The position numbers were made by a program, and so were the translations under genes. 64,000 nt of DNA from Malacoraja senta (taxonomy: Eukaryota). Location: NCBI GenBank assembly GCA_038087875.1, contig CM075996.1:3350001-3414000 (forward strand), read 5' to 3'. The notes beneath the pieces were generated by a model. The model did no database searches. It saw only the letters and a program-made list of their open reading frames with translations, and had not been told where the DNA came from. Below are positions 8,071 to 42,961 of this stretch, piece by piece. Numbering within the stretch: the stretch's first letter is position 1; each line of letters begins with the position of its first letter.

Positions 8071-8454
8071 GCTTAATTACATACTTCAATTTACCTTTAT
8101 AAATACAAAAAGGCCTCGTCCGTGGAAACAATAATTTCATCAGATATAGGAGCAGAATTAAGCCATTTGGCCCATCAAGTCTACTCCGCCATCCAATGTA
8201 ATGGCAAAGTTACAAAAAAACAGAAGATCCCAGCACAAAATTGGCTGAACATAAGACGCCCATTAGATTAGGCTGAACATAAGATGCCCATTAGATGGGC
8301 TGCATTGGTACCCTTTTCTCTGTGTTGTAATTTGATCTCAGCTAAAATTGCAAGTGTGTCGTTTAGTCAAATCTCATGAATTCAATGGTAAGTCACTAAC
8401 AGAAGGAACAACTTCCACTATGTAACCTGAGCACTAAGTATTCCTTAAAGTCTT

Positions 8455-9890
8455 AAAGCCCTCCGTTTCTTCCTCAACCGCAGAACCAACCAATCCCCAT
8501 CTACTGATACTCTCCTCCGCCTAGCGGAGCTGGTCCTCACCCTTAACAACATTTTGTTTGACTCCTCCCATTTCCTCCAAATACAAGGCGTAGCTATGGG
8601 CAAGCGCATGGGCCCAAGCTATGCCTGCCTCTTTGTAGGGTACGTCGAACAATCTTTGTTCGAGGAGTACCATGGCCCTATCCCCGAACTCTACCTCTGC
8701 TACATCGACGACTGCATTGGTGCTACCTCCTGCACCCATACACAACTCACTGACTTCATCCATTTCACCACTAACTTCCATCCGGCACTCAAATACACCT
8801 GGACCATTTCCAACATTTCCCTACCATTTCTAGACCTCACTATCTCCATCGCATGTGATTTCGACTACAGACCGACATCTACTATAAACCCACTGACTCC
8901 CATGGCTATCTGGACTACACTTCTTCCCACCCTGCTTCCTGTAAGGACTCCATCCCCTACTCCCAATTCCTCCGTCTACGCCGCATCTGCACCCAGGATG
9001 AGGCGTTCCAAACCAGGTCATCGGAGATGTCCTCATTCTTCAGGAAACGGGGGTTCCCCTCTGCTTCTATAGATGAGGCTCTCACCAGGGTCTCTTCTAT
9101 ACCCCGTAACTCTGCTCTCACTCCCCATCCCCCCCACTCGTAACAAGGGCAGAGTCCCCCTTGTCCTCACCTTCCACCCTACCAGCCGTCACATACAACA
9201 AATATGCCTCCGACATTTTTGCCACCTCCAACGGGATCCCACCACTGGCCAAATCTTCCCATCTCCTCCCCTGTCTGCTTTCCGCAGAGACCGCTCCCTC
9301 CGTAACTCCCTGGTCAGTTCGTCCCTTCCCACTCAAACCACCCCTTGACTGCATTCAAAGACCCAAGCAGTCTTTCCAGATGCGGCAGAGGTTCACCTGC
9401 ACCTCCTCCAACTTCATATATTGCATCCGCTGCTCTAGGTGTCACCTGCTCTACATCGGTGAGACCAAGCGTAGGCTTGGCGATCGCTTCGCCCAACACC
9501 TCCGCTCGATTCGCAATAACCAACCTGATCTCCCGGTGGCTCAGTACTTCAACTACCCCTCCCATTCCGAATCCGACCTTTCTGTCCTGGGCCTCCTCCA
9601 TGGCCAGAGTGAGGCCCACCGTAAATTGGAGGAGCAGCACCTCATATTTCGCTTGGGCAGTTTACACCCCAGCGGTATGAACATTGACTTCTCCAATTTC
9701 AGGTTGTTTCTGCTTTCTCCTCTCCTTCTCAGCTCTCCCTCAGCCCACTGTCTCCGCCTCTTCCTTTCTTCTTCCCACCCACCGCCACCCTCACAATAGT
9801 CTGAAGAAGGGTCTCGAACCGAAACATTGCCTATTTCCTTTGCTCCATAGATGCTGCCACACCCGTTGAGTTTCTCCAGCATTTTTGTCT
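8455..9890 (+). mobile_element. 5'-truncated Penelope-like retroelement (RT, GIY-YIG endonuclease, pseudo-LTR)
   Basis: QIQGVAMGKRMGPSYACLF and YIDD RT motifs; IYCIRCSRCHLLYIGETKRRLGDRFAQH GIY-YIG motif; frameshifted; ends in ctgaagaagggtctcg...gagtttctccagca. Confidence 0.9.
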
Positions 9891-12800
9891 GCTAAGTATT
9901 CCAAAGTATTTAATGACAAGGAAATCAAAAATACACAAAGAAGGAACTACAAAATTTACGGTGGTCACCATATGTGTGGATGGAGAAATGTAGGGATTTT
10001 AAAAAGCAACTTCTAGAATTTGGCTGCACTGAAAAAAAAATTAAATCACTAATTGAATAATGGAGGTGATTTTTTTTGTGAAAGGTAGAACAAAAAGGAT
10101 CAATAAGGCTGTAAGGTAAACCAGAGAAACCAGCATGGCACAAGGCAACTGGGAGAGTGATTGCAAATGACATAAGTGATACGAAAAGATCTTTGAATGA
10201 AATAAGGATAATACTTATTTTGGAATTTTTGTAATCTTTTAATAATGTTCATTGCAGGACTAACTTAGAAACTGAGTTTAAAGTAATAATAAGCTTGAAT
10301 AAGACATTTGGTGTAGGCAAAAGAATGGGCAGATATTGATGGAAATTAAAGTCTCACATCATTAAATACCAAAGCTAACATTTGGTGGAGAAGGATGCCC
10401 AAAATAGGATTTTACAGCGAGGGGCTCAAGACGAGTTAAGATACTGAATAGGAGTGTAATTCTTTTGGTGATGATGTTTAACTGTGGATAGGTTTCCTAC
10501 TACTATATAATGAAAGATAAGGGTGAAAAGATAAAGCTGGGTTGCATTACAAACAAAGCAAACCCAAAGGTTAAAACTTCAAAGAGGCAGCACTGCAGAA
10601 CAGAAGAATGGCATGTTTGGAATCGTGATGCAAATAGCAGAGCAGAAACGAATGCTGGAAATACATAACCACTTTGCAACTTGGATAAGTGCAGATGTGA
10701 AAACAAGTCCTCAACATCTCACAATGATAGTATACAAGTTACTCCAGCATTTTGCATCTATCTTTGGTTTAAACCAGCATTTACAGCTTCTTCCTACAAC
10801 ACTACAGATAGAATGACTGGTGTACTATAGCCATTTAAGCTAGGATAAGTCTAGGCTTGGCTCTATAGTATTCTACAAATATAGGTATTACAAGGTTTAG
10901 GAAGGCAAGGAGGAGCTTCCTATCCAAATACAGTTGTAAAGACCATGTTAAAAAAAAATACAGAAGAAATTTTATCCTATGAATAATGGCTATGGTACTT
11001 TGATTGACATAATTTACAGCACTTTTGCACCATGGCCAAAATGTCAATACAGTTGACATTATATTATTAAATTATAACGAACTTAATTCTACATATCTAT
11101 TCTGCTCAAATGGATTAGTCCATAATTTCCCATACTCTAAGCGATCAAATACATTAAATCGAAACCTAAAGAGTAATCCTAACTATATTTAAAGATGCCA
11201 GCCAATAACAATGTTCCATACAACAGAGCAAAACTAAATATTTTAGTTTTGACAACGTAATGCTGCACTGATAATTATTTTGTAATGGTAACAAAATAAT
11301 TACAGTAAAAAAAACTGGGAAAATAGTTCAAATAGTCAAAGTAAAATCCCACTAGATTAAAAATGGAGCATGCATTAAAAGGGAAAGTCCACCAATCTTC
11401 AAAATTGCTCGCCACCAGTTTCTCAAATAAAATACAGGGTTGTAATTAATTCTAGTTCTAAAAAAGGAATACACATCTGGGAAGGAATTGAAGCACATCA
11501 TTGGTGGTGTACAATGAAGACTGCTGGTGGTTAATCAGAATTATTCATGTTACAACTTCCACCTTGTAGACAAACCATAATAACTTGCTGCATAAGAAGA
11601 AATCATCTCTGACTCATTTACCCATTAAGTTAAATTGATGCCTTCTCATTATTGCTCCTTCTGTCAGTGAAAATAGTTTTGTTTACTCTACCAAAGCTCC
11701 CCTTGACTATGAGCACAAATATTATTTTAACTATTTCTGCTCTAACAAGAATAATCCCAATTTCTTCAATCTTTTATCCTTGGTAAAATTCTAGTCAGTT
11801 GCTACGCCACTACATAATTTCTTATACGCCACTGATTTTGTCCCTAAAATCAGATGCCACATAAACTGGATACAATTCTTCAGCCGTGGCCTAACCAGTA
11901 ATTTGCAAAACCGTTTGCATATTTTGTGCTTTTATACTCTACACCTCAATGTAAAAAGCTGAGTATCCAACCTGCTTTTGCATCCCAACCCACTCCTATG
12001 TGAACTCATACCTCTTTAAAAGTGTATTATTTAGTTTGTTTCAGTTTTATATAAATTTATAGATAAAATTATATGGATTTATTTAATGAAAAAAGGGAAA
12101 TTATTTTTTCAATAACATTTCCATCTTGCTTGTTCAACTGAGAACATATCTATTTCAGCAACATTCATAGCGGTTAAAGGAAAAAATATACTACATAAAT
12201 ATTTTATACGTTCAATGTCCACTGATTGAAAGGGATTCTCTCTCAAAACCATTAGTAAAAACTCCTCAATCTGCCATAGAGACATGCTATTCTACGGCTA
12301 CAATAAAATTCCAGAAATGTCTCCAACATAGACCCATAGGAGGTTAAGTGTCTAATATCCAACAAGGATAATAGTTTAACTCCAGATCCTGGATAATGTG
12401 ATTAAAGGTTGTGTTGGAAATCCATATGTAGTATGGACATTTGTAACTATTACTGGACACTTAGCACTACAAAGGAACCAGTTTTTGATGTCAGATTTCA
12501 TCTAATACAAATTGGAGCTGTATTTTGTACATTTTATTGGCATAAGATTGATTTCTGATTTAGCGTTTCTTGAGTTTTATAATCAAAGTACCATTCTGAA
12601 TTGGTATCCTCAGACTTCCTGCATTGTAATCAGTGCTATAACAAAGGCCCAGCATTTCAGACCCTCTGGTGAAGCAGCTAAGTCTTGGTGCAGCTTTGCC
12701 AGATATCTACATCAAGCCTGTGGTCTCCTCATTGTATACCTTTGGACCCACAGTACACCCAATTTTAACGCCTGTGCAGATTCCCAGGTTCAACATTTTT

Positions 12801-13130
12801 GCTGTCCCTTTATAATCAGAGATGTAATAACAGATAAAATATACTTTAGGAGTAATGCCAACTGAGTAGGGAATCATTGCGGCAGCTTACAATTATATTT
12901 TATAAAATAGCCAACCTCTATTGATCAAAAGCTCAATTTAAAGAACTAGTAGTTTCACTGACTCAGTCAGAGTCATGTTAAATACAACACTGAAATTTCA
13001 AACTGTTATACTTTTACGGCTGTTTATTTCAGAACTATACTATATATATTCATTCTTTTAAAACAGTACATTGCTAATTTAAAGTATTTTTCTGTGCAGT
13101 TATTGAATTTCATTCACTGTACCACACAGT

Positions 13131-14384
13131 TCATGTGAGCGGTTCCTGCTTTATGACACAGTTCTGCAAGACGATCCGACTAGTTTTCCCAGAAATAACG
13201 TTGGGATTCAAAGTCACTATGTTCTCTGTGGAAGCTGAAGTTCCTGGTTGTGGTTCATGTACTGCAGAACTTGGAGCTGTGTAAATGTAGTTGAATCCCA
13301 CATTGTCTAACATGTCGGACCAGGCCCGGTACTGAAATTCAGCAGCTCCCCAGTAGTTTCTAATGCTGGATTCTGAACGGTGTCCTGTAAGTGCCATGAT
13401 CTCTCTTGCTCCGAGGCCTGCATCGCACAGGAGACGGACTGTCGTAGTTCTGAGTGAATGGTTGGTGTACCTCTGGGACAGTCTGGCAGCAATACTGATT
13501 CTAGGCATCATGCTTCCCAGATAATTAACCCCCATCGGCTCTCGCTTATACCAGACAGGTTGTTCACGTAACTGTTCTGGTGTTAATTTTAGAGGATGAA
13601 GGTAAAAGGCAGGAGGTTCAGGTGGCAGCTTAGATATATAAAGCTCAAGTGAGATGACTGGACAGTTTGCATCTCCTGGCATATCGTACATCCGCCCCAG
13701 TTTCAACGGGTCCTCGAGGTTCCTACGTTTTCCAGTGTACTTCAGCACTGCATAGCGTCGTCCATTGGGATCTCGTTTAATAACAAAAGCGTCCGGAGGG
13801 AGGTCCCGAAGGATTTCCCGTCCATGCTTGGCAAAGTGCAACTGCAGGTCAAACCAGACTTTATTCACGAGTGCAAGGGGTGTATGAAGTCCCAGAATCC
13901 CAGATGTTCTGATCTTTCGAAGGTCGTCTGCATTGATTGGGGGGTGATGATTTGTCTCATCCTTCCCTTGGTTTCTTAGTATTTTAAGCACTCCCAGAAA
14001 CACATTATTGGCACTGCTGAATTCCTTATCCTGCATCAGGCAGATCTGCTGGCTATGAGGAGGCATCTTAAGGTGCCTGTTTAAACCAGCTCGGATCGAT
14101 TTATAACTGGAAATACTATAAGTGTTACCATCATGATTCCTCACAGTGCCGTAAAACTCTCTCAAAATACCATTAAGTTCTTCAACTGATATGCTTTCAA
14201 ATTTATCATCTTTGCCCTTTTCAATAAGCCACTGTTTTAGGATATTCACTGCCCAATCTGTCTGCTTGCGTGTGTTCTTCTCGTTGCGTTCCTCCTCGAG
14301 CCCAATAAGATCCTCTTCTGTCACACTAACATGCCGTCTAGCGCCGTCTAAAAGCTCGTCACTGGCAACGTGTTCATCTGTCAT
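13131..14384 (-). CDS. Intact Crypton-derived tyrosine recombinase-like / DUF3504 ORF (417 aa), candidate domesticated alternative terminal exon of ATF7IP
   Basis: Crypton/KCTD1/KIAA1958-type motifs: NTRKQTDWAVNILKQW, LREFYGTVRNHDGNTYS...IRAGLNRHL, LVNKVWFDLQLHFAKHGRE, CPV...LYISKLP, WYKREPMGVNYL, YTNHSLRTT, TGHRSESSIRNY. No stops; frame stays open 41 codons upstream of the ATG; AATAAA at 13023-13028. Confidence 0.9.
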   Translation of the reverse strand: MTDEHVASDELLDGARRHVSVTEEDLIGLEEERNEKNTRKQTDWAVNILKQWLIEKGKDDKFESISVEELNGILREFYGTVRNHDGNTYSISSYKSIRAGLNRHLKMPPHSQQICLMQDKEFSSANNVFLGVLKILRNQGKDETNHHPPINADDLRKIRTSGILGLHTPLALVNKVWFDLQLHFAKHGREILRDLPPDAFVIKRDPNGRRYAVLKYTGKRRNLEDPLKLGRMYDMPGDANCPVISLELYISKLPPEPPAFYLHPLKLTPEQLREQPVWYKREPMGVNYLGSMMPRISIAARLSQRYTNHSLRTTTVRLLCDAGLGAREIMALTGHRSESSIRNYWGAAEFQYRAWSDMLDNVGFNYIYTAPSSAVHEPQPGTSASTENIVTLNPNVISGKTSRIVLQNCVIKQEPLT

Positions 14385-15720
14385 TTGGTCCTCAAAACTG
14401 AGCAGAGTGTTGCCGTCGAAAATGCCAAAGGTGTAGAGTGGGGAGTGAGACGCTGTTTTGTCGGACAGCTGTGAATTGCGGAGTAATACGTAATTTTTTG
14501 ATACAATGCTTTAAAAAAAATTATTAAATTAAAAACAAAGAAAAATTATCCAGCAGGTGACGTTCATTAGGCAAAAGTATTTCAATACTCAACAGCGCAC
14601 ACCCTATTAACCACTCACTTTCACACATTGCAAACCATGGCATTACATGTTGTCACAGAAATAGTAGAAAGACAAATTGCGGTTGAGTTTGAAAAAAACC
14701 CAAAAGAATGCTAAATCTCTTGCATAGCTAGATGATCTTTCAACTACTGAGAAACTATGAATCCAAATGGAGAATAATACATCCTATTCATGCATGTATT
14801 CTCTAGAAGAACTGGAAAAACGTTATTGTTGCACTGAAGATAATCTGTAATACAAATGGGAAAAGGCTTACAATTTCTGACAAACCTTGGCTGACTGAAC
14901 CTCTGTGCCAGCGCTCTGATCGGCTTCAGCGGCGAGTTACCCAGATGCAGAACAAGGTTTTCGTAAGAGGCAGAGCAGCAATGAGAATCACACCAGGATA
15001 CTCCACCACACTGAAGCATTCGGAAAGCTTTGAACAGCCAACTTTTTGAAGAATGAATGAGGAATGCAGTCATATTCTGCTAATAGGCTCTGGTTTCATT
15101 TAGATAATCTTTCCAGTTTATTTAGAGAATGCACAAGACTTCCCCTCTCACTCTTTCTGTGTTATTTTTCAACCAAATGGTTTGCAGATCTGTCTTCTTT
15201 CTGACACAGGAAAGTTATAAATGTATAACATAATGTAGATGATAAGCCATCTGCCCTCCCCACAGTTTATTCTCTTTGGGTGCTCGTGGAAGTCTTCCAC
15301 CATCTACCATCGTAAATCTTTATACTGAATGATCCATAATTTTAACATCCATAATACTAATGAACAAAAGTGGCATCTCTTTCTGATTAGATCCCCTGTG
15401 GATTTAGCAAAAATGGAAATTTATCAAAGAAAGGCTATATTATAATCCACTGTCAGTGGAGAGGCTATCATGAAGAGCATGTCACTCCTTAAAGCTCTAG
15501 TGGCCCAGCATTGCAAGCAGATGCATGTCCAACTAACCTGAGAATGGAATGATATGACGATTCTGCTTGATCATATTCCTTTACAAACAACAACCAAATT
15601 CAACCCAAAAGGTATAATTCTACTATCTTTCTAGCTACATCTTTCTAGCTGGTCGGCAGTTGCACTTCAGTGGGCTATAATTCATGTTATCAAGTGCCAT
15701 GATAAATGTGCTGTACCCAC

Positions 15721-15812
15721 CTGGCTGCCACTAGGAGAAGTTTTCTTAATGGCTGGCGATTCTCCAGGAACTGCTGTAGAAAGTTTCTGGGTGCCCTGAC
15801 TGAGGCTACTTT
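15721..15812 (-). CDS. ATF7IP: ATF7IP coding exon (ESSLSQGTQKLSTAVPGESPAIKKTSPSGSQ), last canonical exon found in the window
   Basis: ccctattaacag| and CAG|gtgggt; 92 nt, phase 1 to 0; positionally equivalent to the human segment ending KKAADSTSQ. Confidence 0.8.
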
Positions 15813-16684
15813 CTGTTAATAGGGTAAAAGCAATTCATTAATGTTTCAGCTTAACACAAGAATGTCAAGAGACAAGTTTTTTAAAACGTTTCCTTTCAAA
15901 GGTTCTTTGTTCCAACTACTGCTGCAATATTAATCTTTTCGCTTAGCACAAAAGCAATTCTAGTTTTAAAATGAGCTCCAACAACTTGAATAAATGTTTT
16001 TCTTACAGCTCTCATGAAAACACAACCAAACGGGTGCATTAGAAGACAATTACATATTATTGTTATATATCTTCTGCATCCTTCTAAGCATACCTAAGTT
16101 ATATACTTATATATATATATATATGCAGTTTCTAATTTGATCTACATCTGGACGCAGAAGGTATATAACTGGTACATCATGAAATCATTGTTTCCTTTCT
16201 GATTTCCTGGCAATTAGCAGTAATTTTTTAGCATTTTCTATTTTATTGTTTAATTTCAAAGATCTCATGTACATTGTAACCCACTTTACTGACATTCTAA
16301 TAATAGGCCGTTATACAGCCAAAACTAGTGCACCTTGATTGAAAGGTTCACATAAGCAAAGTTAAGTGTTAGCTATAATTGCCGTGTCTTCATCCTTTCA
16401 TTCCCAAACTGTCAATTTTAAACGGCTAATGAGTTTCAAAACCAGTTCAGGTCATCAGTTTTGAATAAACCAGAATTCAACCCACTCAGTGGGAGTAGGA
16501 GGCAGAGGTGGGTGCACGGAATCCATTTCATAAAAATAAAGGCAACAAATTTAGACCGCATACAATTGTAACATCACTCAAACTTCTACAAGTTTCTGAT
16601 AATTTATGCATCCAAGAATCATAAAGCTCATGAGGTTGGCAATTGTTTTTATGCCAGTTCCTTGAAACAACTAGTTAATAGAAC

Positions 16685-17020
16685 CATAGAGCTACAAGGA
16701 ATGCTGAACGGAGACAGGCCCTTCAGTCCACTGAGTCGATGCTGGCCATCAAACACCTAATGACACTAATCCTATCTTCAAACATTTTATTCTCTCTACA
16801 TTCCCATTAGCTTCCTCCAGATTCTATCACTAATCTACACACACCAGACAAGTTAGAGTGACCAATTAACCTACCAACCTGCACACTATTTTGTGATGTG
16901 GGAAAAACCATTGCAACCAGAGGAAACACACACAATCACAGGGAGAATGTGCAAACAGCATACAGATGGCGCTAGACGTCAGAATTGAACCTTGGTTGCT
17001 GGAACTGTGAGGCAGCAACT
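16685..17020 (-). mobile_element. Older copy of the same tRNA SINE family
   Basis: ccaattaacctaccaacctgcac...gggagaatgtgcaaac...agaattgaacc parallels 21192-21472. Confidence 0.6.
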
Positions 17021-18697
17021 CAATTAGCTGACTACTCTCACTTTCTAACTATTTCATGTAGCTCTGCAAATTTCTCCTTTTCATGTATACTACGTTTTAA
17101 AGTTGCTTCGATAATTATCTTCCACTCTCCTTTCAGGCCACGCTTGCTGGTACATATTTTTCCTAATTTCCCCTCTTGCCATTCTCAATTAGAACTCCAA
17201 TTAACTTAAACTTGCGATCTCTAGTGACTATGACTTTGAACACCTGTGTAAGTCTCCCTTTAACTTTCCTTGCTGTAAGGAGTACAACCCTTAGTAATCA
17301 AGACTTCACACCACCAAAGTTCTTCATTCCTAATAACACTCTTAGTCACAGTCATACAGCATGGAAACAGGCCCATCGGCCCAACTTGCACACCAACCAA
17401 TATGTCCCATCTACATTAGTCCCAGTTGCCTGCATTTGGCACATATGCCTCTAAACCTATCCTACAAGTGTTGACATTTCTGCTAAGATGCTATTTCGGG
17501 AATTGGACACAATGCTCCAGCTGAGGTCTAACCTGTGATTTACAAGGTTTCGAGTAGCTCCCTTGCTTCTGTATTCTGCTTTCGTACACCCAATATTTGT
17601 TCATTTCATCAATCTGTCAGTCTTCCCAAAGTAATTTTCTATCCTCCTCACTGAGCTTATCACCGAATCAGCAATTAAATTAGACAGAGGCCATAAATAT
17701 ATTAGGAGCGGAAAATCTGGTGTACCATGGTATATTGTCCAACTACTCTATCAAAACCTCTTATGTGTTCAAGTAAGTAACTTTTAACTCACTCTGCTCA
17801 AGGATTAAATCTCAACCTCCACATCAGCACGATCATTAATTTCAAAGGGAAATAACAATTCTGATAAGAATGGCAATTTTATGTAAGTAAAATTATTTAA
17901 TTATATTTATGTTTAAATAGGTTTTAATTAGCAAGTTAAAATGTATAATAGTGTTTTATTTTTAATAGTATCTGAATATTAGAATTTGTAAAACCAAAGT
18001 TATTCACCAATATCAATTTCAGCTTCAGGTTTATTAGTTGATGAAGAAGTTGGTGGAGGAAAGAACAAGTCAGTTGCTGTCAATAAGGCATGATTTTGTT
18101 ATGCTGGACTTCTTTATTCTGGGTGGGATCTGTTTCCCAGAGGAAGACTGTCCCTGAGGGCCTGTTGCAACTAAAATGAAATGAGCTCCGTGGGCAAGCA
18201 ACTATAGATCATCCTTTTAAACCTATGTAAGAATTTCCGATATGTTGAATCTTTTTATCTTTTAAGGCAAAGTTATCCTTTTGTCTCAGATTAAATAATG
18301 CATCTCCTATTCCAAGCAATGCAATGCACTACCAATGTTCTAAAATGAACACAAATAAATATCATTCCACTGCTAAAACCAAATTTAATTTTCTCATTTT
18401 TGTTTCTTGTAACTATTCTATAAACTGGTATTTAGACTTATTGTGGCCCTGTTAATGTCCTTAATTGGGACACAATTGTACATTAGCAATGACAGCATTA
18501 TCATTTTTGAAATGAGACAGTGGCCTTCAATAATTTAATTATGGATCAAATGGCTTTTCATGAATTAAAAACATATATAAATGTAATGACAGTGAAAGGC
18601 AGCTCAATAAAACACAGTAAATATGTTACTTAAATATATATACAAAACACATAGACGAACTAACAATATTTTGATCTTAACATGTGATTTGTTTTAC

Positions 18698-19384
18698 CTG
18701 TTCTGGACGGTCCTATATTGGTGGCATCTGAGCTGGATGGTAATGGTTGACCTGATGACACAGAAACTAGCCCTTGGCCGTAAGTCTGTGATGGCCTTGG
18801 TGGTAATCCAGGCCTAGTAGTATTTGAAGGGCTAAAATGAGCTGGGGAATTCAAAGATTGCTGTGACGTCCGGGAAATCTGTGAAACCGGTGAAAGAACA
18901 GTCTGGGAACTAATCGCAGAAGCAGTCTGATTGGAAATAGCATTACTTATCTGCATTGATCCCATAGTTGCAGGAGACTTCCTCTGCACTCCTGGGCTTG
19001 GCAAAGAAGTACTAGCACCATTTGCTTTTGTTACATTCGGCATTTGTGGTGCAAGTGGTTTCGGGAGGATGTTAAGCGTAGGTTGGGATTGAACAGGTAG
19101 AAACTCAAGTCCAGGTTGCTGGTTGGTCATCAAGGTGTTTGCTGAGGCCTGCAGAAGCTGAGGTTGGGAAGACATTGCCACCGGAACCGTAAGTAATACT
19201 GGCACTGACTGTAGAGATACTGGAATAGGCTGGTTACTGCCAGAGGCTGGCAGCGACTGATTGGTTCCTACCACCGCTGCAGTTGCTGGGAGCACAGGAG
19301 TAACCACAGCACCAGATGACCCTGTATTCTGAGGTTTAGTTTGTCCACCAACTACCTGAGGTGGTGTGAGGTTTGTGACAATAC
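18698..19384 (-). CDS. ATF7IP: ATF7IP large Ser/Thr/Pro-rich coding exon
   Basis: VPVAMSSQPQLLQ, LEFLPVQS and PSPGVQR match human VPVAVSSQPQLLQ, VEFISVQS and PSPSIQR; attgttacag| and ACAG|gtaaaa; 687 nt, phase 1 to 1. Confidence 0.93.
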
Positions 19385-19477
19385 CTGTAACAATAGAACA
19401 GCCTTCAATTAGAATCTATAAATATAGGTATGCTTCCCAGTGCAATTTCTTCCGAAGGTTCTATTCATGCACCCTAA

Positions 19478-19794
19478 AGGGCCTGTCCCACGGGCATGCG
19501 ACTCCATGCGGCAAGCGCGACCTAACCGCAAGCGGGGGCCGGTCCCACTTCGATCGCCGGAGCCGTATGGAGTTGTGCGGAGCTGGTCCCGACATCGCGC
19601 GTGGCTCCGAAAAACTGACATTGTTCAAAAATTCCGTGCAGCAACGGCCTGCCGCCCCGCACCCGCCTCGAGGCCGTGCGCACCGCCTCAACGGCCGTAC
19701 GCACCGTCTTGACGTCACTCGACCTCCGCGCGGCCCCCGCTTGCGGTTAGGTCGCGCTTGCCACATGGAGTCGCATGCCCGTGGGACAGGCCCT
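19478..19794. mobile_element. PIF/Harbinger-type MITE
   Basis: About 60-bp TIRs beginning AGGGCCTGTCCCACGGGCATGCGACTCC; TAA TSD on both sides. Confidence 0.88.
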
Positions 19795-20718
19795 TAATGG
19801 CCTCCGCCCATGAGACTGGTGTGCAGGCAACAAGAATCAAGTGTTTTATTGTCATATATCCCAGATAGAACAATGAAATTCTTACTTGAAGCAGCACAAC
19901 AGAATATGTAAACATAGTACTCCGCAAACAGTATAGTAAACGAGAAAAAAGTGATGGCCTTCAGTATGACTGATCCTACAGAATGCAAAACATCAGGGCC
20001 AATTCAGATCTATTATACAACCCTTTGGATCCCCATTGCACAGCACAATGGGGCAGATTTAATGACATGGCAACACACCAAGACCCAACTCACGCTGGTG
20101 CTTTCACAGTAGACATTAAAGCAGGTCATTATTCTGTGTCTTTAGAGCCAAAAACACAACAATAGCGGCACATAACTGGAATACAGTTAACAAGATGCCA
20201 TTTTAAAAGTCATTTCTGACAGACATCTATAAAGTTCCCACAAATTAAGCTCTTACAGGTTTGCAAAATCTTATTCTCTTATTTGGATGGCAAAATATAA
20301 CTCAAATGTGTTAGTTGGAATAGAAAATAATATAAATTACGAAACTTGCAATTATATCCCCAAATTAAGCATTAAGAAAATTTGCAATTTAAGGACTTAA
20401 AATAATATTCTTCTGATTCACGAGACTGCAGTGAGTGGGCCCCTGTATGCTTCAGGTGGGGTGGGCCTTTGTGTGCTTCCGGAGGGAGCACGATAAACTG
20501 GGCCTCTGAGAGGTAGTTACTCAACCACTGGGATTTCCAAATCATTAGAAAATAATGAGACTATTAAGAGTTTTACTGTAACTAACATACTTGGCAAGCA
20601 TGGTAGGTCTTGTTGGGGGTTAGATGAAAGGGGGAATAGAGTAAATTATGTGCTCTTAGTACAGTCACAAGATACCACGGAACAGCACTGAACGTTGCAA
20701 TAAATAGTTTACAAGTAC

Positions 20719-20807
20719 CTGTATTATTTGTGTTTGCAGACGGCTGGCCTGATACCGTGCTATCAGCCATATTTCTTCTTATATCCAACATCTGCCTTAC
20801 TGTTCCA
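20719..20807 (-). CDS. ATF7IP: ATF7IP coding exon (GTVRQMLDIRRNMADSTVSGQPSANTNNT)
   Basis: Matches human AGTVRQMLESKRN; ctattttcag| and ACAG|gtactt; 89 nt, phase 2 to 1. Confidence 0.92.
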
Positions 20808-21191
20808 CTGAAAATAGAAAATGGAAACTGAAATTGTATACTAGAACCAATAGTAAGAAATAACATTTCCTAAAATTGTTATCATTCTTGCTACTTAACT
20901 TGTTGATTTTTTTTACGTGAAGTTTATGACACAAAGAAGCATGACTTCAGCTGAATGCAGAATAAAACAATGGACCTGGAAATACCCCTGAAATTGAAAC
21001 CGAAATCATTATAGATAAGGCGTAGGGAAGATTAGTTTGGGGGTGCGGATCAGAAGTTAAAACATATAATGATTCAAAATTAACAAGAGAATTGCAATTT
21101 GAATTGAAATAATCTTAATGACAATTAGATATAGACTAAAAAAACAGAGAAGGGACATTTGATGCTCACTGAAGCTTGAATGGATCATTAT

Positions 21192-21472
21192 TAGTTTAGT
21201 TTAGAGATACAGCGCGGAAACAGGCCCTTCGAATCCGCACCGACCAGCGATCACCGCACATTAATACTATCCTCCACACACTAGGGATATTTTTTAACAT
21301 TTATACCAAGCCAATTAACCTGCAAACCTGTATGTCTTTGGAGTGTGGGAGGAAACCGAAGATCTCGGAGAACACCCATGCACGTTACGGGGAGAACGTA
21401 GAGACTCTGTACAGAAAGCACCCGTAGTCAGGATCGAACCCGGGTCTCTGGCGCAGCTCTTTCGCTACACCG
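21192..21472 (-). mobile_element. tRNA-derived SINE (HE1/V-SINE-like) with a CR1-type tail
   Basis: Minus-strand B box GGTTCGATCC; V-domain-like gggtgttctccgag...cggtttcctcccacactccaaagac; tail (CTAAA)n. Confidence 0.8.
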
Positions 21473-22329
21473 CGGGTTGGTAAATTATACATATAGAATG
21501 CAAAATTATGAATCGCAAAGAGTTGAAAATAGTGAAGCCAGGATCACTGGATGGCTAGATCTCCTACAATAATCTATCATCTACAGACAGCTAAAATATA
21601 TTGAGGAATTGAACAAAAAAATGAATATTTTGTATATATATTATTATATATAAATAAAACAAAATATTCCAGTATTTTTTTGTTCATTTCCTATATATAT
21701 TATATAGTTTAATGATATATAAGTTTATTTTCTTTCTGAAAATCAGCACTGAAAGATAAATTTAAATGTCATTAAAAAATGTTGCAATTTAACTTAGGTT
21801 ATAATAAAGCGTCCTTGAAAAGGTGAATTTAATGCTTACTGCCAGTTTCCTTGCCCTTTCTCAACAGTTGAAAGCTGCTTCGCCTATTCATATTACAGCT
21901 GCCAATATATTAGCCATTCAATCTCTGCCCTATGAATTTTTGTCTCAGACTGATTAGAATTTATATTTCAATACTTTCTACCTCTGACAAGATCATTGAT
22001 GCATCTTTACTAAAACTTTCTCAAAACTCATCCTCTCAAGTCTTGCAAAAAAAGTCTACAAGTGGTAGGATGTGGAATGCACTGCATGTATGGTTGCTTA
22101 GCTCATGTGGGACAATTTATATTACAGAGACACATGACAATAGGAGACAGGAACATTCTGGCTCCACCTGTATGAATGATCTTTCATTAAAAGCCACTTT
22201 GTCATCAGCAGTGTTTACCAGTGGTTGTCTCACTTTGTCAGAATTTATTTTTCCTCCCTTTGTATATTGCACACTTTACATAACTTTAAACAAAGTGACA
22301 GGCTGAATCAAATGAAAAAGGCGACTTAC

Positions 22330-22445
22330 CTACGACACTGCACGGTGCTAGAAACACTAACAGGGGGGTTGCAGGATTTGCTGGGAGAATTGGGTTGCGT
22401 AGTCTGGGCTCCAGATGATTGTTGAGGTATGGAGACGGAAATATT
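22330..22445 (-). CDS. ATF7IP: ATF7IP coding exon (NISVSIPQQSSGAQTTQPNSPSKSCNPPVSVSSTVQCR)
   Basis: ttctgttctttcag| and AG|gtaagt; 116 nt, phase 0 to 2, joins the next exon in frame. Confidence 0.82.
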
Positions 22446-25400
22446 CTGAAAGAACAGAAATTAATAATAATGCAATTGCTATCATTATTATTTCATTTGC
22501 TCAAGACAAGAATATATCACAGTAGCTTATGGGACATCAAAAGACTCAATTAAAGAAAATGTACTCTATTGGTCCTGAAACAGACTCTACCAACAGATGC
22601 CTTTAAAGAAAAGCAATTTTAGTACGTCGATCTTCAATAATCTGCCCTTTTCCGCGTCTGCTGTTCTGATCTTTAATAAACATAATAGAAACATCAATTC
22701 AGTACAGAGCAGGAGGCATCCATTCAAATTAAATCCACGTTGGCACATTGTGGTACCATTTACTTAGTCATTCTTTTGTCATAACCAAGTTATTTTCTCT
22801 CTGATTTCAATTTAAGTTTCCTTAGAATGACTTGATCGTCTGAGCTTTGACTGCATTTATTGACGGAGATTCTGATCATAAGCACCCTGCATAAATACCG
22901 AATCTTCTGCTCTTGGAATTTGTTCTCCTTGTTGTCATCTTACACTGATGGGTACAGCTTCTATTTACTTAATCTAAATCTGTTACGTTTTTGAAACTTC
23001 CATTATTTTATTATTCCCCCAATCATCAACAGCTGGTGGTGATTTTGTGCATCTTTTATCTATCAGCTTTATTTTAAATAATGTTCAAGGTTCAAGGTCA
23101 GTTTATTGTCACATGTACCAATTAAGGTACAGTGAAATTTGAGTTACCATACAACCATACTAAGTGAAAAGCAACAAGACACACAACCACACAAAAATTA
23201 ACATAAACACCCATCAGGCTAAAGTGAGGAAAAAAAACACTTTTTATAAGGATACAAATGCCAGTGACAAACTGCAATGAAAGCAAGGGCAAGTGTATCA
23301 ATTCCATGTCTAATGTTTTATTCTGCAGAATGTGATCTGATAGTACAGAGGGGAAGAAACTTTTATTGGTCTCGATGTCTGGGCTTTCAAGGTACTGCAT
23401 CTTCTTCCAAAAAATAGGTAGAAAAGGGAATGGCCAGGGTGCAGACACCTGTTAGTATATTCTAACTCTTAATTCTACTGTTAATGCAATTTGCAGTTTG
23501 GCATAGCTTTGCACTGTTTCAGATTGCACTACTATCTTTGCATCAGTCTTTTGGTTTTCACTTGCAGTATTTATTATTGTATTCTTGTCGTATTGTTTAC
23601 AGCGATGTGCCAATTTTGTTCCCAGAGTCCAAGTCAACACAAACTAACCTTAACTGCAATTATGGATCACTCACAAATATACTTTCTTATAATTAACATA
23701 ATCTATGTGCTCAACAAGATTCAAGCAGGAATCACTTGGAGAACTAAAATTTTTCACCCCCCCCCCCCCAAGTGATATTTTTTTCAGTATTTGGACAAGT
23801 TCAGTTGAGGATGTTGAATCAATCAACTTTACCCAGATTGTCTGAAGATGGAGAGGTTGGCCAATCAATATTCTTTTTGCAGACTTTAATCAATAGAAAG
23901 TTACATCTTTACAAAACGGCAAATTCAATATGAAAATCTGAACGAAAGGCTCAATTAATTCAAGAAACACAGCATACTAAAGTAGAAAACAACGTAATTT
24001 TGAGATTGGGAAAAATAATGACACCAAATAATGGCAGAGAAACTCATTTCTAAGTCTGGTTAAAAGGGATACATCTCCACTACTATGCTACATTAGTATT
24101 TCAACTGCACCCTTTGATATAGAGGATAGCAAATGATTCTTGTATTCCACTCCACTTTAATGGCCTCAACAGCAAAGTTAAAAGTTTAGTATTGTATCTC
24201 ACCTCCACTTCAACTGCAAATGTCAACAATAAATTTAACAAAAAATGCTCAAAATGGTGTGATCACAGAGATGGAAGTAATATGAACAAGGGCATGATTT
24301 TTCAAGTTCCACTACCTATGTTGCTCCTTAGGATTTTAAGCTGGTTCCTGTCTATGCATAAAAACATGTACCGACACAAGAGCTGGAACAGCTAAATGAA
24401 GATAACTGATCAACAAGCATTGCCAACTGGAGGCAAACACTTCTTACGATTAGAACGTGCCTTTCATGGCAAGTAATGGATGCCCGTTAAGTATCAGACA
24501 AATTTCTTCGCAACTATTTTAGAAAGATAATGCAAGTCTTAAAAGACATTCATTTTCTCACCCAAAATGGAATGAAATCCAATAAATGGATAGTTTCAAT
24601 GATTCACAATTAGACTGGAGTTAATAATATTATTTATTGGATGTGAAATCTTCAAATCCATACAAGGACAAATATACTTAGCACTGCTGACAGTCAACAC
24701 TAGAAAGCAATTTACAGCATAACATGGAATAAAGTGCTTGAATCACTTTGTAAACTTATTAAAATACCTCACATTGAAGCAAAGTGCAATACCATTTTAA
24801 AATGTTTGCATGATCCCCAAGCTTCCCCATCCACCCTCAGTTCTTGTCTCAATGCAGTCTTTTCCAGGTGGAAGGTTAATTAAGAAGTTTCAGCACAAGC
24901 ACTATCACATGCTGGGAAATCACAAGGTGACCAGTTAGCCTCCCCATCAGTTGATTGTCTTATATTGTACAATCTAACAATTTTTAATTGCACTATTATC
25001 AGATTTTTTGCAGCACAGTAGTTTTATATACTATGACTTTGACAGAAGAAATTGGTAACATTGAAGCTGTACCACAAGGCAGTTCAATCTTCACCAATCC
25101 CTCCTTCGTGGCCTCTTGTGCACAATTTGCAGTCTTAAAGAGGAGGACTGTGAACAAGCCGAGGTCTTCTTCAAATGATTTGGAGGCTGCAAACAGTCAG
25201 ACACTACTTTTATTTGAGCCTTTTTATAGGTCATCATTGCATTTCTGCCATTTCCCATTTGTTCCTTAATTAGTTCTTCATCGAAGCCACGACTGTGAAG
25301 GGCAGCTACACAGCTGATCTACAATAAAATGAATACACACAAAAAGAAAAATAAGCCTGCATGGATAAGTCCTTGTCGTTGTACAGACAACTGAATGACT

Positions 25401-27399: not shown

Positions 27400-28420
27400 C
27401 TTAAAAACAGGCTTTGTCACTTGACCTTTAAAATCAATGAGAATAAATGGAACGAGAAATTTGGCAACTGGAAACAAATACCTGATATTGCCTGCTAGAT
27501 ACATTAAGGAAAATGTCTTTATTTTTTGCAACATTAATAAGAAAACAGGCTTTATACTTACCCTTCCAGACAGCCCAGTGTGGTGTCCTGAAATATCACC
27601 CTCATCACAGATTTCTTTGGAATATCGCTCCAAGGTGTGAACTCCTATAGCTCGCCGGCAGAACTCCAGCCGACCAGCAAATCGGACCACTATTGGGAAC
27701 CATGCTGAGGTAGCGACGGAAGAGAGAAACAATACATCTTGGGTTGGTCGAGTCTGCATACTGCCGAATGTGTGCTTTTGTCCAAGTTACATCTCTGTAA
27801 GGTTTTGCCACAAATGCTAGATATGCTCCAATTTCATCTGTTCCAAAGATAAACTGATCAATTACTAATCTATTGTGTTCGGTCGCTGCGTGGACACCAA
27901 AATCTTTCCAGAGATAGAAATAGACAGCGTAACTGTAGCTTTTTGCATCTTGAAGTTGAAAGACTATTTGCCAAAGCATTTCTTCTTCTTCTGTATATGG
28001 TTGTGCTTGTTTCCTTAAAGTACTTTGTTGTTTAAGGAATTTTATTTGCCCGTCAAGGACAGTCTGAAACTCAGAAAACTCTCCGTTACAATTGTTGAAG
28101 AAGTCAATGTCCAGTCACTTGCAGATTTCACACAAGTATCGCAAGATTGAACAACAGAGCAGACGGTGGGAATTACGTGAATAAAATTATCCAACTTGCT
28201 GACGCACTTCCTTCACAAACTGACACAACCAGAAATTCAATTCATCACGCGTAATTTCATGAGACAATAATGGCACATTAAGGAACAACTTTTCACATTT
28301 CATACTATTTTCCATTAGATAGTTATTTCGATTTTTAGCCCATTTATCCCGAGTTCGAACTCCCCAGGCTGTGGCTCTCTTTGTACTGTAGGGAATGTTA
28401 GCTTATATCATTAACCGTCT
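27400..28420 (-). pseudogene. Degraded Crypton transposon tyrosine recombinase
   Basis: Hand translation: NIPYSTKRATAWGVRTRDKWAKNRN, ELNFWLCQFVKEVR, KQAQPYTEEEEMLW, YADSTNPRCIVSLFRRYL, AIGVHTL...GISGHHTG-like segment ending LSGR; several stops and a frameshift. Confidence 0.8.
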
Positions 28421-29871
28421 TATGTAATCTGGAATAGTTTTTTTGGGAGCCTTATTTGATAATGGATCCAGCTGTCCCAATGCAAGTTGATCAATTGAAT
28501 GATAAGTTTTAATATTTTTTGACGCATGTGCAGATAACGGGGTGGTAGAATCATTTTGCTGTCCAGCAGTCTTTCCCCCACCACCACCCCCCAAGTGTTT
28601 CCTATTTTATTTACCCTCAAGCCAATTGCCCTAAATAGTGTCAGCGAATTACAACCTAAACAACTAAAGCTAAACTACTGTTATTTATCGCACATCGTTT
28701 CTTTAATCTATCTTAGCCATATTTGTTGCACATTTACGAGTGTATATTTTCATTCAAAGTGAAGACTGGTAGGTGATGCCCAGCTGCAGTTGTTCGTGTC
28801 TCCAAATGTAGCTGCTAGCCACTTAGATTTGCTTTGGAAACTGTCAAGACAATCCCTTAAGTGTCTCCCTGCTGCTGCACTCATCATTACTGTTGTGAAA
28901 AACATCCCATAGGAACAATTTTCCATTTATAATGTGGGATAACTAAATGATGGGTCTTTGTCCCAAACATTATGGAGGGCACTGTATCTGGACTAACCAT
29001 TTCGTACTCTGCTTGAACCCCATCTTATAAATAGATAAAGATGAGGATACTCTTCATTAAGTAATATTTCAAACATTCCATCTATTTTAACATCTGTACA
29101 TAAATCTAACTGGAGCACGAGTCAGCAAAACTAATTCTCAGCCAAACAATAACTCCTAGAATGTGATAAGCTTCAATGTGTTACTGAGGACTGGAGGGGT
29201 CTACTTGCTGTGACAATTGGACAGTGGTAGTCTAATTCAAAAACAGAATAATTAGTGGAAAATGCAGCTTCTAATCAACAATTTACTCTCTTCAATAGCC
29301 TTGTAAAGGGTTAGGGTTTTTTAAAAGAAAAAATCCACATCCCCAATTGCGTTTCTCCACGGCAGGCTGGCTGAACACATTCCAATAAATATTATTATTA
29401 TGCAGTAGGGCCTGTTCCATTTCCACACACCGATGTTCTTAATTTCTCTTTGTCAACCTGATTTCCAATCTCACTAATGCAGTTAAACCTAATCACATTA
29501 CAATCTGTTCTTTTCCACTCCCATCACCAAAACTAGTCAGACACCTAGCTTTAGCTGGAAAATTGAGTGTAATTGGTCTTTGATGTTCAGCAGCATCATA
29601 CACCTATTTTCATGTATTCTACTCTACCAGTTGTGCCACACCCACTGTATTTGTGTTAATGCCAGAATGTTCTACAAATAGAAAAATGTTCCCACACACT
29701 ATCTACTCAATGGAAATAAATTGTAGTGCAATACTCAATAGAAATACTTCCTCTACTAATACTGATATATAAAGGTGAGAAAACGTTGAAATTCCCCAGC
29801 CAATACAGATATATAATAGGCAATCCCCCGACTTTAAAGAGACTTATTTCACAAACATCCACTTCTGATCA

Positions 29872-35444: not shown

Positions 35445-35640
35445 TTAATATTACAATATTTTGTAAGAAATGGGAAAAGAGATATGGTACAAAAGACAGA
35501 TGGTCTAAAGATGACTACAATTTACTCTTCACCGTGTGCAAAAGTGTACTCTCAATTGTATATTATTTCTTATCTTAATGATCCAAGCAACTTATCTCCC
35601 TCTCCCCAATGTTACTAACGTAGACATATTTGGTACTTAC

Positions 35641-35721
35641 CTCTTGTGCCTTTTTCAGGATGGAATCATTTCGAGCTTGATTTGCTGACCCCAGTCTTTT
35701 CTCTATCTGCATTAGCTTTGC
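35641..35721 (-). CDS. ATF7IP: ATF7IP coding exon (AKLMQIEKRLGSANQARNDSILKKAQE)
   Basis: Similar to human AKIARLTKRFEAAKEDLKKRHE; ttgctgcag| and GAG|gtaagt; 81 nt, phase 0 to 0. Confidence 0.9.
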
Positions 35722-36314
35722 CTGCAGCAAATACAAGAGCACAATTATTTAAAAGAATAAATCCCAAAATTTAGTCCAGATGCATATCCACCCAGTTCTG
35801 CTCTTCATACACAATTCTTGGCTGACTGAACATTAAAGTTACAAAACTGTAAACATTTGCTCTTTAAAACCAAACAGAGAAAACTGAAAAAGGAGAAGAT
35901 AGTTGGCGTCAGAAATAGAGGCAAGGGTTTGTCCAAACAGATTACTTGTTCATTTATTTCACAGCTGTCGGTGGTATGTGCAAATGAAATACTGGAGAAA
36001 AACCCCAGAAAAAGATGCATATTTATAACCCCTCAAAAATAACAACGCGAGAAGCTTCTGTTACGTTTTAATTCAGGACTCAAATCAGCCAATTAGGATG
36101 ATGCCGGGCTTCATCCAGTTAATTTACTTAATTAAAAGACGCTCATATCACAGCAAACGAAGGGAAACCAACATCAGAATTTTTATGTGGATATTTTTAG
36201 ACATACTTATTATCTTGGTTTTCAAGATATTAATAAAAAGATTCTATTGGCAGGCTCTGAGGCAAGTTCTGTGCAACAGCTTCAAAGGAGGTCAGCACAC
36301 TCAAAGCACAAAGC

Positions 36315-37070
36315 ACGGAAGTGGCGGCTGCCTGGCAGCTGCGGCTCGCCTGCAGTCCGTCTGTTTTTTCTTTTTTGTTGTTGTTTTCTTTTGTCTGTTT
36401 TAGTTTAGTTTATTAGGTTCTGTAAGTGTGGGGGGGGGGGGGGGTGGGAGAAACATGGTTTTGGTCTCTTCCTTCGGGCGTATGCGACTTTTTCTTGTCG
36501 TGTCCCCAGTCTCCATCTGCGCTGAGGCCTAATGGCGGAGCTGGCGGCCCGACTTGGAGCTGTGGTGGCGTTCCGGCGGCGGCCTGGCTTCGGGGCTGTG
36601 GCGGTGGCCTGACTTCGGAGGCCCGGCCGCGGGCCCAGTGGACATCGTCGGGAGCTCGCATGGTCACAGGTTGGTGACCTGTTTTTACGGAGCTCACACA
36701 ACAACAGCTTCGTCCGCTGGACTGGAGGGCGGCAGCTTCGACCACCCCGGGCCGCGGAGTTTGAATCGGCCCGTTCGCGGAGCTGGATTCAGCTGCGGGA
36801 ATGACTTGCTTACCATCACCCGGCGGGGTCACAACATCGGAGGCCTGGATCGCCTCAGCGCAGAGGGAGAACAAGGAGGGAAGAGACAAAGACTTTTGCC
36901 TTCCATCACAGTGAGGAGGTGCTTGGTGAACTCACTGTGGTGGATGTTAAATTTGTGTTTATTGTGTGTTTTGGTTATTTTTATTATATGTATGACTGCA
37001 GGCACGAAATTTCGTTCAGACCGAAAGGTCTGAATGACAATAAAGGATACTTTGACTACTTTGACTTGAC
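36315..37070 (+). mobile_element. GC-rich non-autonomous retroposon with a hairpin and (TTGAC)n tail
   Basis: Head cggaagtggcggc...gcagtccgtctg, T tract, G run; 3' ttcagaccgaaaggtctgaa hairpin, aataaa, ttgac repeats. Confidence 0.65.
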
Positions 37071-37105
37071 AAAGATGAAATCTATGAACAAATGAATGAA
37101 GACAG

Positions 37106-39418: not shown

Positions 39419-40149
39419 ACAGGGAAATGCAGCAAAAGGTTAAATTGCTCTTGCATCCTCTTGGTAGCCATACATATTTGCAACACATCCCCCCAATTGC
39501 GATGTGAGCTGTAAATCTTTTGCATCTGTCTACTGTGATGAATATTTATAACTAGGGGACTGAGCTATATTGGATGTCAGTTTATTATTGTCATGTGTAC
39601 CATGATATAGTGAAAAACGGTATGCTATCTGGTCAAATCATACTATACATGAGTAAAATCAAGCAATATACAAGTCCATACGATAGTGCAAAGATAAAAA
39701 TACCAGAATGCAAATTAAAGTGGTACAGCATTACTGCCGTAGAGAAAGTGCAGAGAGAAGAGACGCAATGAGGTAGGTTGGAAAATTGGGACTTTAACCT
39801 AGCTTATGAGAGGATTATTCAGTAGTCTGAGTACCGTGCGAAAGAGATGTTATCAGATTCTGATGTTAAGTGCTTTCAAACTTTTGTGCCTTCCACCTCA
39901 CAGGGGAGGGGACATGGAGGAATAACTGGGATGTAAATGGTCCTTGGCTACTTTCTGATAACATGGAAGGAAAGCTTGTTGCCTTAACCTTGACATCAGT
40001 GATCTCCCCCCTATTACAATCAGACTGAAGAAGAATTCCATTCCCAAAATGTCATATATCCTCCACAGATGTTGATGACCCTCTGAGCAACTCCAGCACT
40101 TTGTGGTCCATACAAGATTCCAGCATCTGTAGTTCTCCATTACTTCACA

Positions 40150-42887: not shown

Positions 42888-42908
42888 GTGTGTGTGTGTG
42901 TGTGTGTA

Positions 42909-42961
<53 letters not shown>
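42888..42961. repeat. (TG)n microsatellite
   Basis: Visible imperfect TG run. Confidence 0.95.

Follow-up and report, generated by a model that had tools for sequence, protein, structure and literature searches.

The 64,000-nucleotide (nt) window analysed here (Malacoraja senta, GenBank assembly GCA_038087875.1, contig CM075996.1, positions 3,350,001 to 3,414,000) carries exons of ATF7IP, the gene of a SETDB1 adaptor, on its minus strand. Inside one ATF7IP intron lies an open reading frame (ORF) derived from a Crypton transposon and encoding a tyrosine recombinase (YR) domain. The reading of this ORF as an alternative last exon of ATF7IP, entered through an acceptor at 14468, is well supported by comparative evidence: predicted isoforms from across jawed vertebrates share this junction, its acceptor is conserved, the leader shows signs of translation, the coding sequence bears the marks of purifying selection, and the exon is single-copy and placed 5' of the exons for the SUMO-interacting motif (SIM) and the FN3 domain. 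That the fusion exists and is selected is very probable. Its best interpretation, tentatively and by analogy, is a CSB-PGBD3-like fusion that would give SETDB1 a DNA clamp in place of FN3; once the existence and selection of the fusion are granted, the DNA-clamp mechanism becomes somewhat probable. The locus is organized as follows.

13131 to 14468, minus strand: alternative last coding exon of ATF7IP, Crypton-derived (445 amino acids and stop), with a leader, predicted Cre-like core-binding and catalytic domains, and a disordered tail.
14385 to 14468, minus strand: leader of 28 codons (LSDK...YTFGIFDG) 5' of the first ATG, translatable via splicing only.
14469 to 14500, minus strand: conserved 3' splice site with a weak pyrimidine tract, the phase-0 acceptor at 14468.
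14509 to 14525, minus strand: T-rich AG (exon start 14508), in frame with the 22330 donor, unsupported.
13023 to 13028, minus strand: proximal AATAAA, 103 nt past the Crypton ORF stop.
15721 to 15812, minus strand: last ATF7IP exon common to both isoforms, with phase-0 donor CAG/gtgggt.
18698 to 22445, minus strand: ATF7IP exons 22445-22330, 20807-20719 and 19384-18698, a low-complexity linker.
35632 to 44796, minus strand (approximate boundaries): ATF7IP exons for the SETDB1-binding coiled coil (PF16788), kept in the fusion.
52875 to 53987, minus strand (approximate boundaries): large N-terminal ATF7IP coding exon.

The Crypton frame runs from stop to stop over 14510-13131 on the minus strand (459 codons), and its ATG at 14384 opens a protein of 417 amino acids, with no in-frame methionine in the 42 codons above that ATG. 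It matches DUF3504 (PF12012) with an E value of 2e-12 and 47.9 bits, above the gathering cut-off of 29.7, and Phage_integrase with an E value of 3e-05, under the gathering cut-off; identity to fish CryptonA-type proteins is 40-47%. Shark ATF7IP proteins align exon by exon from 54 kb to 15721 and then onto this ORF, which marks the host as a cartilaginous fish and places the ORF sense to ATF7IP, as the initial annotation had stated for its stop-free 417-residue DUF3504 frame. Exons 22445-22330, 20807-20719, 19384-18698, 15812-15721 and 14468-13131 join with GT-AG ends into 773 codons and one stop, bearing out the proposed phase-0 exon end at 15721 and the in-frame acceptor (attcacag/CTG) at 14468. 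The exon is sense and intronic, with an in-frame acceptor, its own stop and its own poly(A) signal, which stands at 13028-13023, near the 100 nt first estimated; further signals follow at 12538 (AATAAA) and 12087 (ATTAAA). The canonical next ATF7IP exon (VIDLT), which we take to be SIM-like, begins about 1.6 kb past window position 1, at C20:3348419, and the FN3 exon lies beyond it, also outside the window, at C20:3342226-3342624. Since both are downstream of the Crypton exon, use of the latter would remove SIM and FN3 together, the swap that had been predicted; the coiled-coil exons were located where expected, at about 35.6-44.8 kb.

The junction recurs in database records, which are computed gene models of the RefSeq and Ensembl type. 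PF16788 and PF12012 occur together in 106 of 111 long matches, and FN3 is also present in just one of those 106. Models from Heterodontus, Chiloscyllium, Heptranchias, Narcine and Callorhinchus contain the join Q/LSEK or Q/PSEK (QPSEK in Narcine), the equivalent of 15721 to 14468, and Q/LSEQK stands at the equivalent position in turtle, bird and Ascaphus (frog) models. By pattern, the 14468-type acceptor is used in 24 of 112 records, including P0058 and P0059; bird and some turtle models use a tandem NAGNAG acceptor about 60 nt downstream, reading Q/QLKQEE (39/112) or Q/LKQEE (46/112), and the remaining three records are unrelated. Tandem-acceptor variants in gene models usually derive from RNA alignments.

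One orthologous DNA locus of bird type, L011, was recovered from 39 candidate stretches. Its layout matches that of the window (upstream exon, 1.36-kb intron, acceptor), and 29 of the last 32 intron bases before the 14468 acceptor are the same. Of the first 24 leader codons, 12 encode the same residue in both loci, and nine of these 12 differ synonymously, with all five of G-I-F-D-G included. A leader that lacks an in-frame upstream methionine and is conserved through synonymous changes is most simply translated through splicing, and on this codon pattern it probably is. A 15-base stretch about 150-170 nt upstream of the acceptor (window 14630-14644, minus strand, approximate) is identical to L011:2725-2739 and may be a splicing element or what is left of the 5' end of the Crypton. 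A second acceptor had also been proposed, with exon start 14508; its phase-2 frame fits the 22330 donor by arithmetic, but the resulting extension occurs in 0 of 112 records, and it was rejected as a functional site. L011 carries an AG at the same -40 offset, but in two other bird products, P0116 and P0120, the stretch is translated in different frames.

A DNA search of the genome with the Crypton ORF returned one match, the ORF itself, and a protein search returned four others at 25-43% identity that resemble KCTD1 and KIAA1958/QRICH1-type host genes, these counts being lower bounds. Multiple similar copies, the hallmark of an active transposon, were not found, and the genome search contained no near-identical element or target repeat. 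Other DUF3504 host genes in this genome (L007, L008, L009), named from their similarity, are a KCTD1-like gene on the unplaced contig C5199 and two KIAA1958/QRICH1-type exons. In a tree of 39 rows chosen from 190 aligned, in which joins among long branches outside the orthologue clade were not relied on, the 19 orthologue rows (sharks, ray, chimaera, sturgeon, coelacanth, frog, turtles, birds) form one clade, supported at 100/100, apart from fish CryptonA proteins. Crocodilian, squamate, lungfish and teleost orthologues were not among the database matches, which is not evidence of absence, an intact alligator copy having been reported by Frith.

Compared with L011, the YR core has a pS (synonymous difference) of 0.82, which is saturated and precludes a dN/dS ratio, and a dN (nonsynonymous divergence) of 0.17; 172 of 267 base differences fall at third codon positions. 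Between shark and bird the YR core is 77% identical, as against 41-50% for the coiled coil and 32% for the tail, and 207 of 325 core columns are invariant in a 16-record panel. Together with the recurrent join and the matching acceptor, this codon pattern indicates that both the junction and the Crypton ORF are conserved under purifying selection. The initial annotation had allowed for a young transposon with many near-identical copies and for absence or neutrality at orthologous loci; the single DNA match, the same join in shark, turtle, bird and frog models, and a dN of 0.17 beside saturated synonymous sites answer both points. The fusion is presumably about 450 million years old.

Contigs of four out of ten sequencing runs were placed on window positions 10000-23000: X1, X3 and X7 from related organisms, and X5, a DNA run that may be the source sample. 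X1, X3 and X7 join ATF7IP exons across introns, the spliced joint 15812-18698 being present in all three, and are therefore treated as RNA, although their run labels read 'RNA? (probably DNA)' for X1 and X3 and '?' for X7. RNA over the Crypton ORF exists in these related organisms, including forms that extend beyond the proximal AATAAA: X3 contigs cover 11118-13017, 13114-13818, 13826-14920 and 14913-15632, and X7 contigs 12950-14664 and 14725-15750. In X1 most of the ORF is without cover, in X7 its depth equals intron depth, and in X3 contig depth is about 10 over the Crypton region versus 150 on an ATF7IP exon contig, figures that cannot rank expression. The joints 15721-14468 and 22330-14508 are not among the 15 displayed of 1388 joints, from other organisms' contigs; contigs drop rare forms, so a missing junction is no evidence of absence. 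In X1 and X3, 27 unplaced letters past the donor could reflect a merge with one acceptor as well as the other and were left unassigned, and excess depth at 14340-14773 was discarded as a junction signal, being also present in the DNA run X5. Compared with the window, the ORF contig of X7 shows 38 differences in 1720 bases, and four contigs from intron or downstream sequence show 126 in 2895 (Fisher p 1e-4). The X1 and X3 contigs, which come from one study, both reach about 11118 (window 11118-13017, minus strand), where no canonical signal was seen near the end; this suggests a 3' untranslated region that extends about 2 kb further than cleavage at the proximal AATAAA would give.

An AlphaFold2 model built from a 49-sequence alignment (mean pLDDT 76.6, mostly above 80 over residues 21-330, confident over most of 21-350) predicts for the Crypton domain a Cre-type tyrosine recombinase fold with core-binding and catalytic domains. 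Foldseek matches the model to Cre with an E value of 6e-08 and a TM score by target of up to 0.71, and superposition on Cre (VIA) gives Z 19.7 and a root-mean-square deviation (rmsd) of 3.6 over 297 aligned residues, covering both DNA-clamp domains. The best sequence match in the Protein Data Bank (PDB) is QRICH1 in the Zincore-ZFP91-DNA structure (9HJT, E 4.9e-08), whose fold fits the model more poorly than Cre (Z 13.9, rmsd 17.7). The tail is disordered and divergent, and psi-K-x-E, the SUMO-acceptor consensus, stands at its C-terminal end in 133 of the 140 orthologue records that reach the tyrosine. The residues concerned are these.

13824 to 13826, minus strand: first catalytic arginine position, CAT for histidine (R187H).
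13722 to 13730, minus strand: beta2-beta3 loop K219-R220-R221, with a candidate general-acid lysine, register uncertain.
13449 to 13460, minus strand: H309-x-x-R312 catalytic motif, intact.
13353 to 13382, minus strand: H335 and the Tyr344 nucleophile (TGHRSESSIRNY), intact.
13143 to 13154, minus strand: C-terminal IKQE, a psi-K-x-E SUMO-acceptor consensus at the end of the divergent tail.

Of 151 orthologue records, which do not represent independent species, 135 carry all five residues R187, H309, R312, H335 and Y344, and these range over sharks, coelacanth, frog, turtles and birds. The window departs from this set at codon 187 (13826-13824), which reads CAT; arginine is found there in 148 of 151 orthologue records, two do not cover the position, and the window is the only histidine, with arginine also in 39 of 39 other Crypton-type matches. 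The description of this ORF as intact therefore holds for its reading frame and fails for its active site; H309, R312, H335 and Y344 are unaltered. R187H is the window's sole change at the 207 invariant columns, and an X5 contig (10751-16882) has no letter different from the window, codon 187 included, although X5 might be the source sample itself and heterozygosity does not show in contigs. The substitution most likely makes this genome's copy catalytically dead, and its lineage shows no extra drift (branch 0.011 versus 0.022 in its sister). As to the general acid, K219 is present in 148 of 151 orthologue records and position 221 is lysine in 104, arginine in 40 and proline in 4; it is lysine in 29 of 39 other Crypton-type matches. 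The loop lysine is ambiguous, with an uncertain register relative to Cre. In the sturgeon record P0190 the tyrosine is replaced by leucine and the SUMO-consensus end is lost.

In the proposed mechanism, a CryptonA element inserted into an ATF7IP intron before the jawed-vertebrate split, as already published, and would then have been captured as an alternative last exon. A minority of transcripts would splice from 15721 to 14468 and end in the intron, a step that is strongly supported by comparison and not directly seen in RNA. The predicted protein would keep the N-terminus and the SETDB1-binding coiled coil and replace SIM and FN3 with a whole Cre-like YR domain and a SUMO-consensus tail. In the literature, FN3 binds ZMYM2, MGA, MBD1 and others via a short motif, and ATF7IP lacking FN3 remains able to bind SETDB1 and to hold it in the nucleus while its FN3 partners are lost (PMC7706265). 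The YR domain may clamp DNA through its arginine and histidine phosphate pocket, probably at Crypton-derived end sequences or related sites, so that SETDB1 and trimethylation of histone H3 lysine 9 (H3K9me3) would be aimed by a built-in DNA-binding module instead of FN3 partners. Ancient repeats of Crypton origin, such as Eulor5/6 (PMC5753468), are among the possible targets. Two ATF7IP chains join SETDB1 through coiled coils in a 1:2 heterotrimer (PMC12167477), and a complex with two copies could bring together a pair of YR domains for a two-fold site. The selected output is probably something other than strand exchange.

Several known systems offer parallels. CSB-PGBD3 arises from a piggyBac ORF in intron 5 of ERCC6 used as an alternative 3' terminal exon (PMC2268245, PMC3459987); there too an intronic transposase ORF ends a chromatin regulator, is co-expressed with the full-length protein and is under selection. 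The ATF7IP case differs in involving a tyrosine recombinase instead of a DDE transposase, in being about ten times older, in carrying the adaptor half for SETDB1 and in being so far a prediction from sequence. SETMAR likewise ties a transposon DNA-binding module to the histone methylation and silencing machinery, whereas here the methyltransferase would be bound in trans via the coiled coil, the isoform is alternative and the whole catalytic domain is retained. KRAB-transposase fusions also link transposon DNA-binding modules to silencing machinery. In salamanders, P0123 and P0125 belong to a separate CryptonA lineage with an N-terminal KRAB box (E about 1e-10 to 1e-11), and P0123 and P0124 have R-H-R-H-Y intact; from its domain composition this lineage seems to represent a separate event in which a Crypton YR was joined to a silencing module, and a literature search by titles found no paper describing it. 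CryptonA-derived YR domains are also found in the transcriptional regulators KCTD1b, KIAA1958, ZMYM2/3/4, QRICH1 and WOC, and in KCTD1b, as in ATF7IP, one Crypton exon makes the isoform. Other domesticated DUF3504 genes lack most of R-H-R-Y (PMC3212892; PMC13465315), whereas the ATF7IP domain retains these residues in most lineages, stands C-terminally in place of FN3 and was lost in mammals. With Cre and active fish CryptonA the domain shares the two-domain clamp fold, and with the latter its sequence similarity; unlike active CryptonA it is single-copy, fixed in position and host-spliced, with the first arginine lost in this genome and no terminal repeats or target sites identified.

Certain observations weigh against a selected DNA clamp. 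The fusion records are computed gene models for which read support was not seen, and the contigs X3 13826-14920 and X7 12950-14664 continue unspliced through the acceptor, indicating that intron-retained or stand-alone RNA exists. No binding site for the YR domain was identified, and its solved relative QRICH1 is, by the title of 9HJT, part of a complex that binds a DNA-bound zinc-finger protein. The Crypton exon is lost or broken in mammals and several bird lineages. The tyrosine nucleophile, which pure binding would not obviously need, is kept in 136 of 140 records reaching it. Bird copies damaged in the C-terminal His/Tyr region also drift about five times more in the rest of the domain than whole ones, with 13.0 versus 2.6 changes per 289 residues (7 versus 39 sequences). 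This comparison used 46 distinct YR sequences, not independent of one another, and scored 289 positions upstream of the damage against a consensus; in the same bird sets the coiled coil, as a control, showed 6.3 versus 4.9 changes. The seven damaged copies represent about five lineages, and three are galliform. Such drift implies that the C-terminal catalytic region matters or was lost along with function, and the comparison indicates that the YR domain either stays whole under strong constraint or decays as a whole. Independent C-terminal catalytic damage (frameshift, small deletion or tyrosine change) is seen in the bird records P0101-P0107, P0098, P0099 and P0093 and in L011.

These patterns bear on the idea that the fusion is an active tyrosine recombinase or type-IB-like nickase tethered to SETDB1, cutting via a 3'-phosphotyrosine to recombine, relax or trap Crypton-like ends, with lineages that lack a catalytic residue, including this genome, having lost or losing the function. 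The retention of R-H-R-H-Y in most orthologue records, whereas other domesticated DUF3504 proteins lost such residues, fits this idea, as do the relaxed selection across the whole domain that accompanies damage to the His/Tyr region, the complete Cre fold with its C-terminal helix in the model, and the suggestion of catalysis in birds already made by Kojima and Jurka (PMC3212892). However, with 64% of core columns invariant, the chance that any five given columns are all invariant is about 0.11; lysine 221, conserved in transposons, is arginine or proline in 44 orthologue records, though K219 may substitute; R187H occurs here without extra drift; and no near-identical element or target repeat was found in the genome. 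It is unlikely that most non-mammalian jawed vertebrates make an ATF7IP isoform with a still-active Cre-like recombinase or nickase coupled to SETDB1. If they did, DNA cutting or trapping and H3K9me3 deposition would coincide at the same sites, and the histidine allele found here, galliform birds and mammals would be natural knock-outs.

The place of QRICH1 in a zinc-finger complex makes protein binding a live alternative, in which the YR domain would act like the QRICH1 DUF3504 domain in Zincore, gripping DNA-bound zinc-finger or other factors, or SUMO-dependent partners via its tail, and would thereby recruit SETDB1 with no sequence choice of its own. QRICH1 is both the best PDB sequence match and a fold match, surface conservation is very high and the psi-K-x-E end is conserved, and CSB-PGBD3 acts largely by tethering to AP-1 (PMC3459987). 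DNA-clamped Cre nevertheless fits the model far better than QRICH1, and the phosphate-binding pocket of arginines and histidines is retained, unlike in QRICH1; a protein-interaction module is rather doubtful.

Production of a stand-alone YR protein from ATG 14384, by an intronic promoter or from intron-retained RNA, with the fusion models minor or carried over in annotation, is improbable. RNA-like contigs do run continuously from the intron into the ORF (X3 14913-15632 and 13826-14920; X7 12950-14664), and products of 417-472 amino acids are annotated in some databases (P0171, P0191); yet the codons that precede the ATG conserve their protein sequence through synonymous changes, the ATG itself is not conserved in birds, and the acceptor is conserved, with three acceptor variants in bird models. 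A role at the DNA or RNA level (an enhancer, or a poison exon tuning full-length ATF7IP) draws on the ORF-less fossil that persists at the orthologous place in mammals, as published, and is largely refuted by saturated synonymous sites beside conserved amino acids and by the excess of third-position differences, so that, together with a young transposon copy, which the single copy and the orthologous clade across jawed vertebrates contradict, it is very improbable.

The DNA-clamp reading is preferred to these alternatives, at slightly under even odds. The locus, its intact ORF and the predicted fusion are already published, and the isoform is already in automated annotation. Kojima and Jurka (2011, PMC3212892) described an ATF7IP-intron Crypton that has an undamaged ORF in zebra finch and chimaera, carries a frameshift in chicken and turkey and is a fossil in mammals, predicted the fusion without mRNA or EST (expressed sequence tag) support, and considered the YR possibly still catalytic in some birds. 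Frith (2022, PMC9004415) dated the insertion to the gnathostome ancestor, suggested coding exaptation with loss in mammals, and found the alligator copy intact. Both reports treat the same locus without transcript evidence or junction analysis. The initial annotation was thus right that the insertion is not new, although the published species are zebra finch, chicken, chimaera, alligator and mammals and not specifically the frog it had named. Its view of the fusion isoform as an open question holds for function, which is unstudied in the accessible parts of the literature searched, and not for the isoform, the fusion idea being in print (PMC3212892) and the isoform present in RefSeq/Ensembl-type models. 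A search for functional work on the ATF7IP-Crypton fusion, with most subscription journals outside its reach, turned up just the 2011 and 2022 reports, and PMC12062965 contains no mention. What is added here is the conservation of junction and acceptor from sharks to birds and frog, the codon pattern of the leader and the census of catalytic residues, together with the SUMO-consensus end, the relaxed selection on bird copies that are damaged, and the R187H change of this genome. The initial annotation had passed over R187H, the catalytic set retained elsewhere, the SUMO consensus at the C-terminus and the recurrent losses among lineages.

The fusion sits on the constitutive cofactor of SETDB1 and contains the only domesticated Crypton domain in this analysis with a full catalytic set. 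The locus allows a direct test of how SETDB1 is aimed at DNA outside KRAB zinc fingers and FN3 partners, and of what DUF3504 domains do. Natural controls are available, the exon being intact in duck, turtle and sharks, truncated in chicken, changed from arginine to histidine here and fossil in mammals. It is easily overlooked, since mouse and human lack the exon and that of chicken is truncated.

Other transposon ORFs in the window had been described as broken, and those examined (Penelope-like, DIRS-like and a DUF3504 relic) are indeed in pieces. A Penelope-like retroelement remnant at 8449-9799 (plus strand), in the same intron downstream of the Crypton exon, has separate frames with a GIY-YIG match (E 1e-04) and reverse transcriptase-like text recognized by eye. 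A DIRS-like retroelement lies in pieces at 46518-50719 (plus strand), antisense to ATF7IP, with a reverse transcriptase fragment (48662-49042), a DAM-methylase-like ORF (49360-49965) and a YR-like fragment recognized by eye (50228-50719, no Pfam match). A broken DUF3504/Crypton-like relic occupies 27605-28440 (minus strand), sense in another ATF7IP intron; it matches PF12012 with an E value of 1.4e-05, contains several stops, is about 25% identical to Crypton-type proteins and has one DNA match in the genome. DNA-binding domains of pogo/Tigger type appear in two ATF7IP models: Narcine isoform X8 (P0168) has CENP-B_N and HTH_Tnp_Tc5 as its C-terminus, and Catharus isoform X3 (P0024) has a Brinker/Tc5 N-terminal extension. 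ATF7IP may trap transposase exons repeatedly, or the Narcine and Catharus models may be by-products of annotation.

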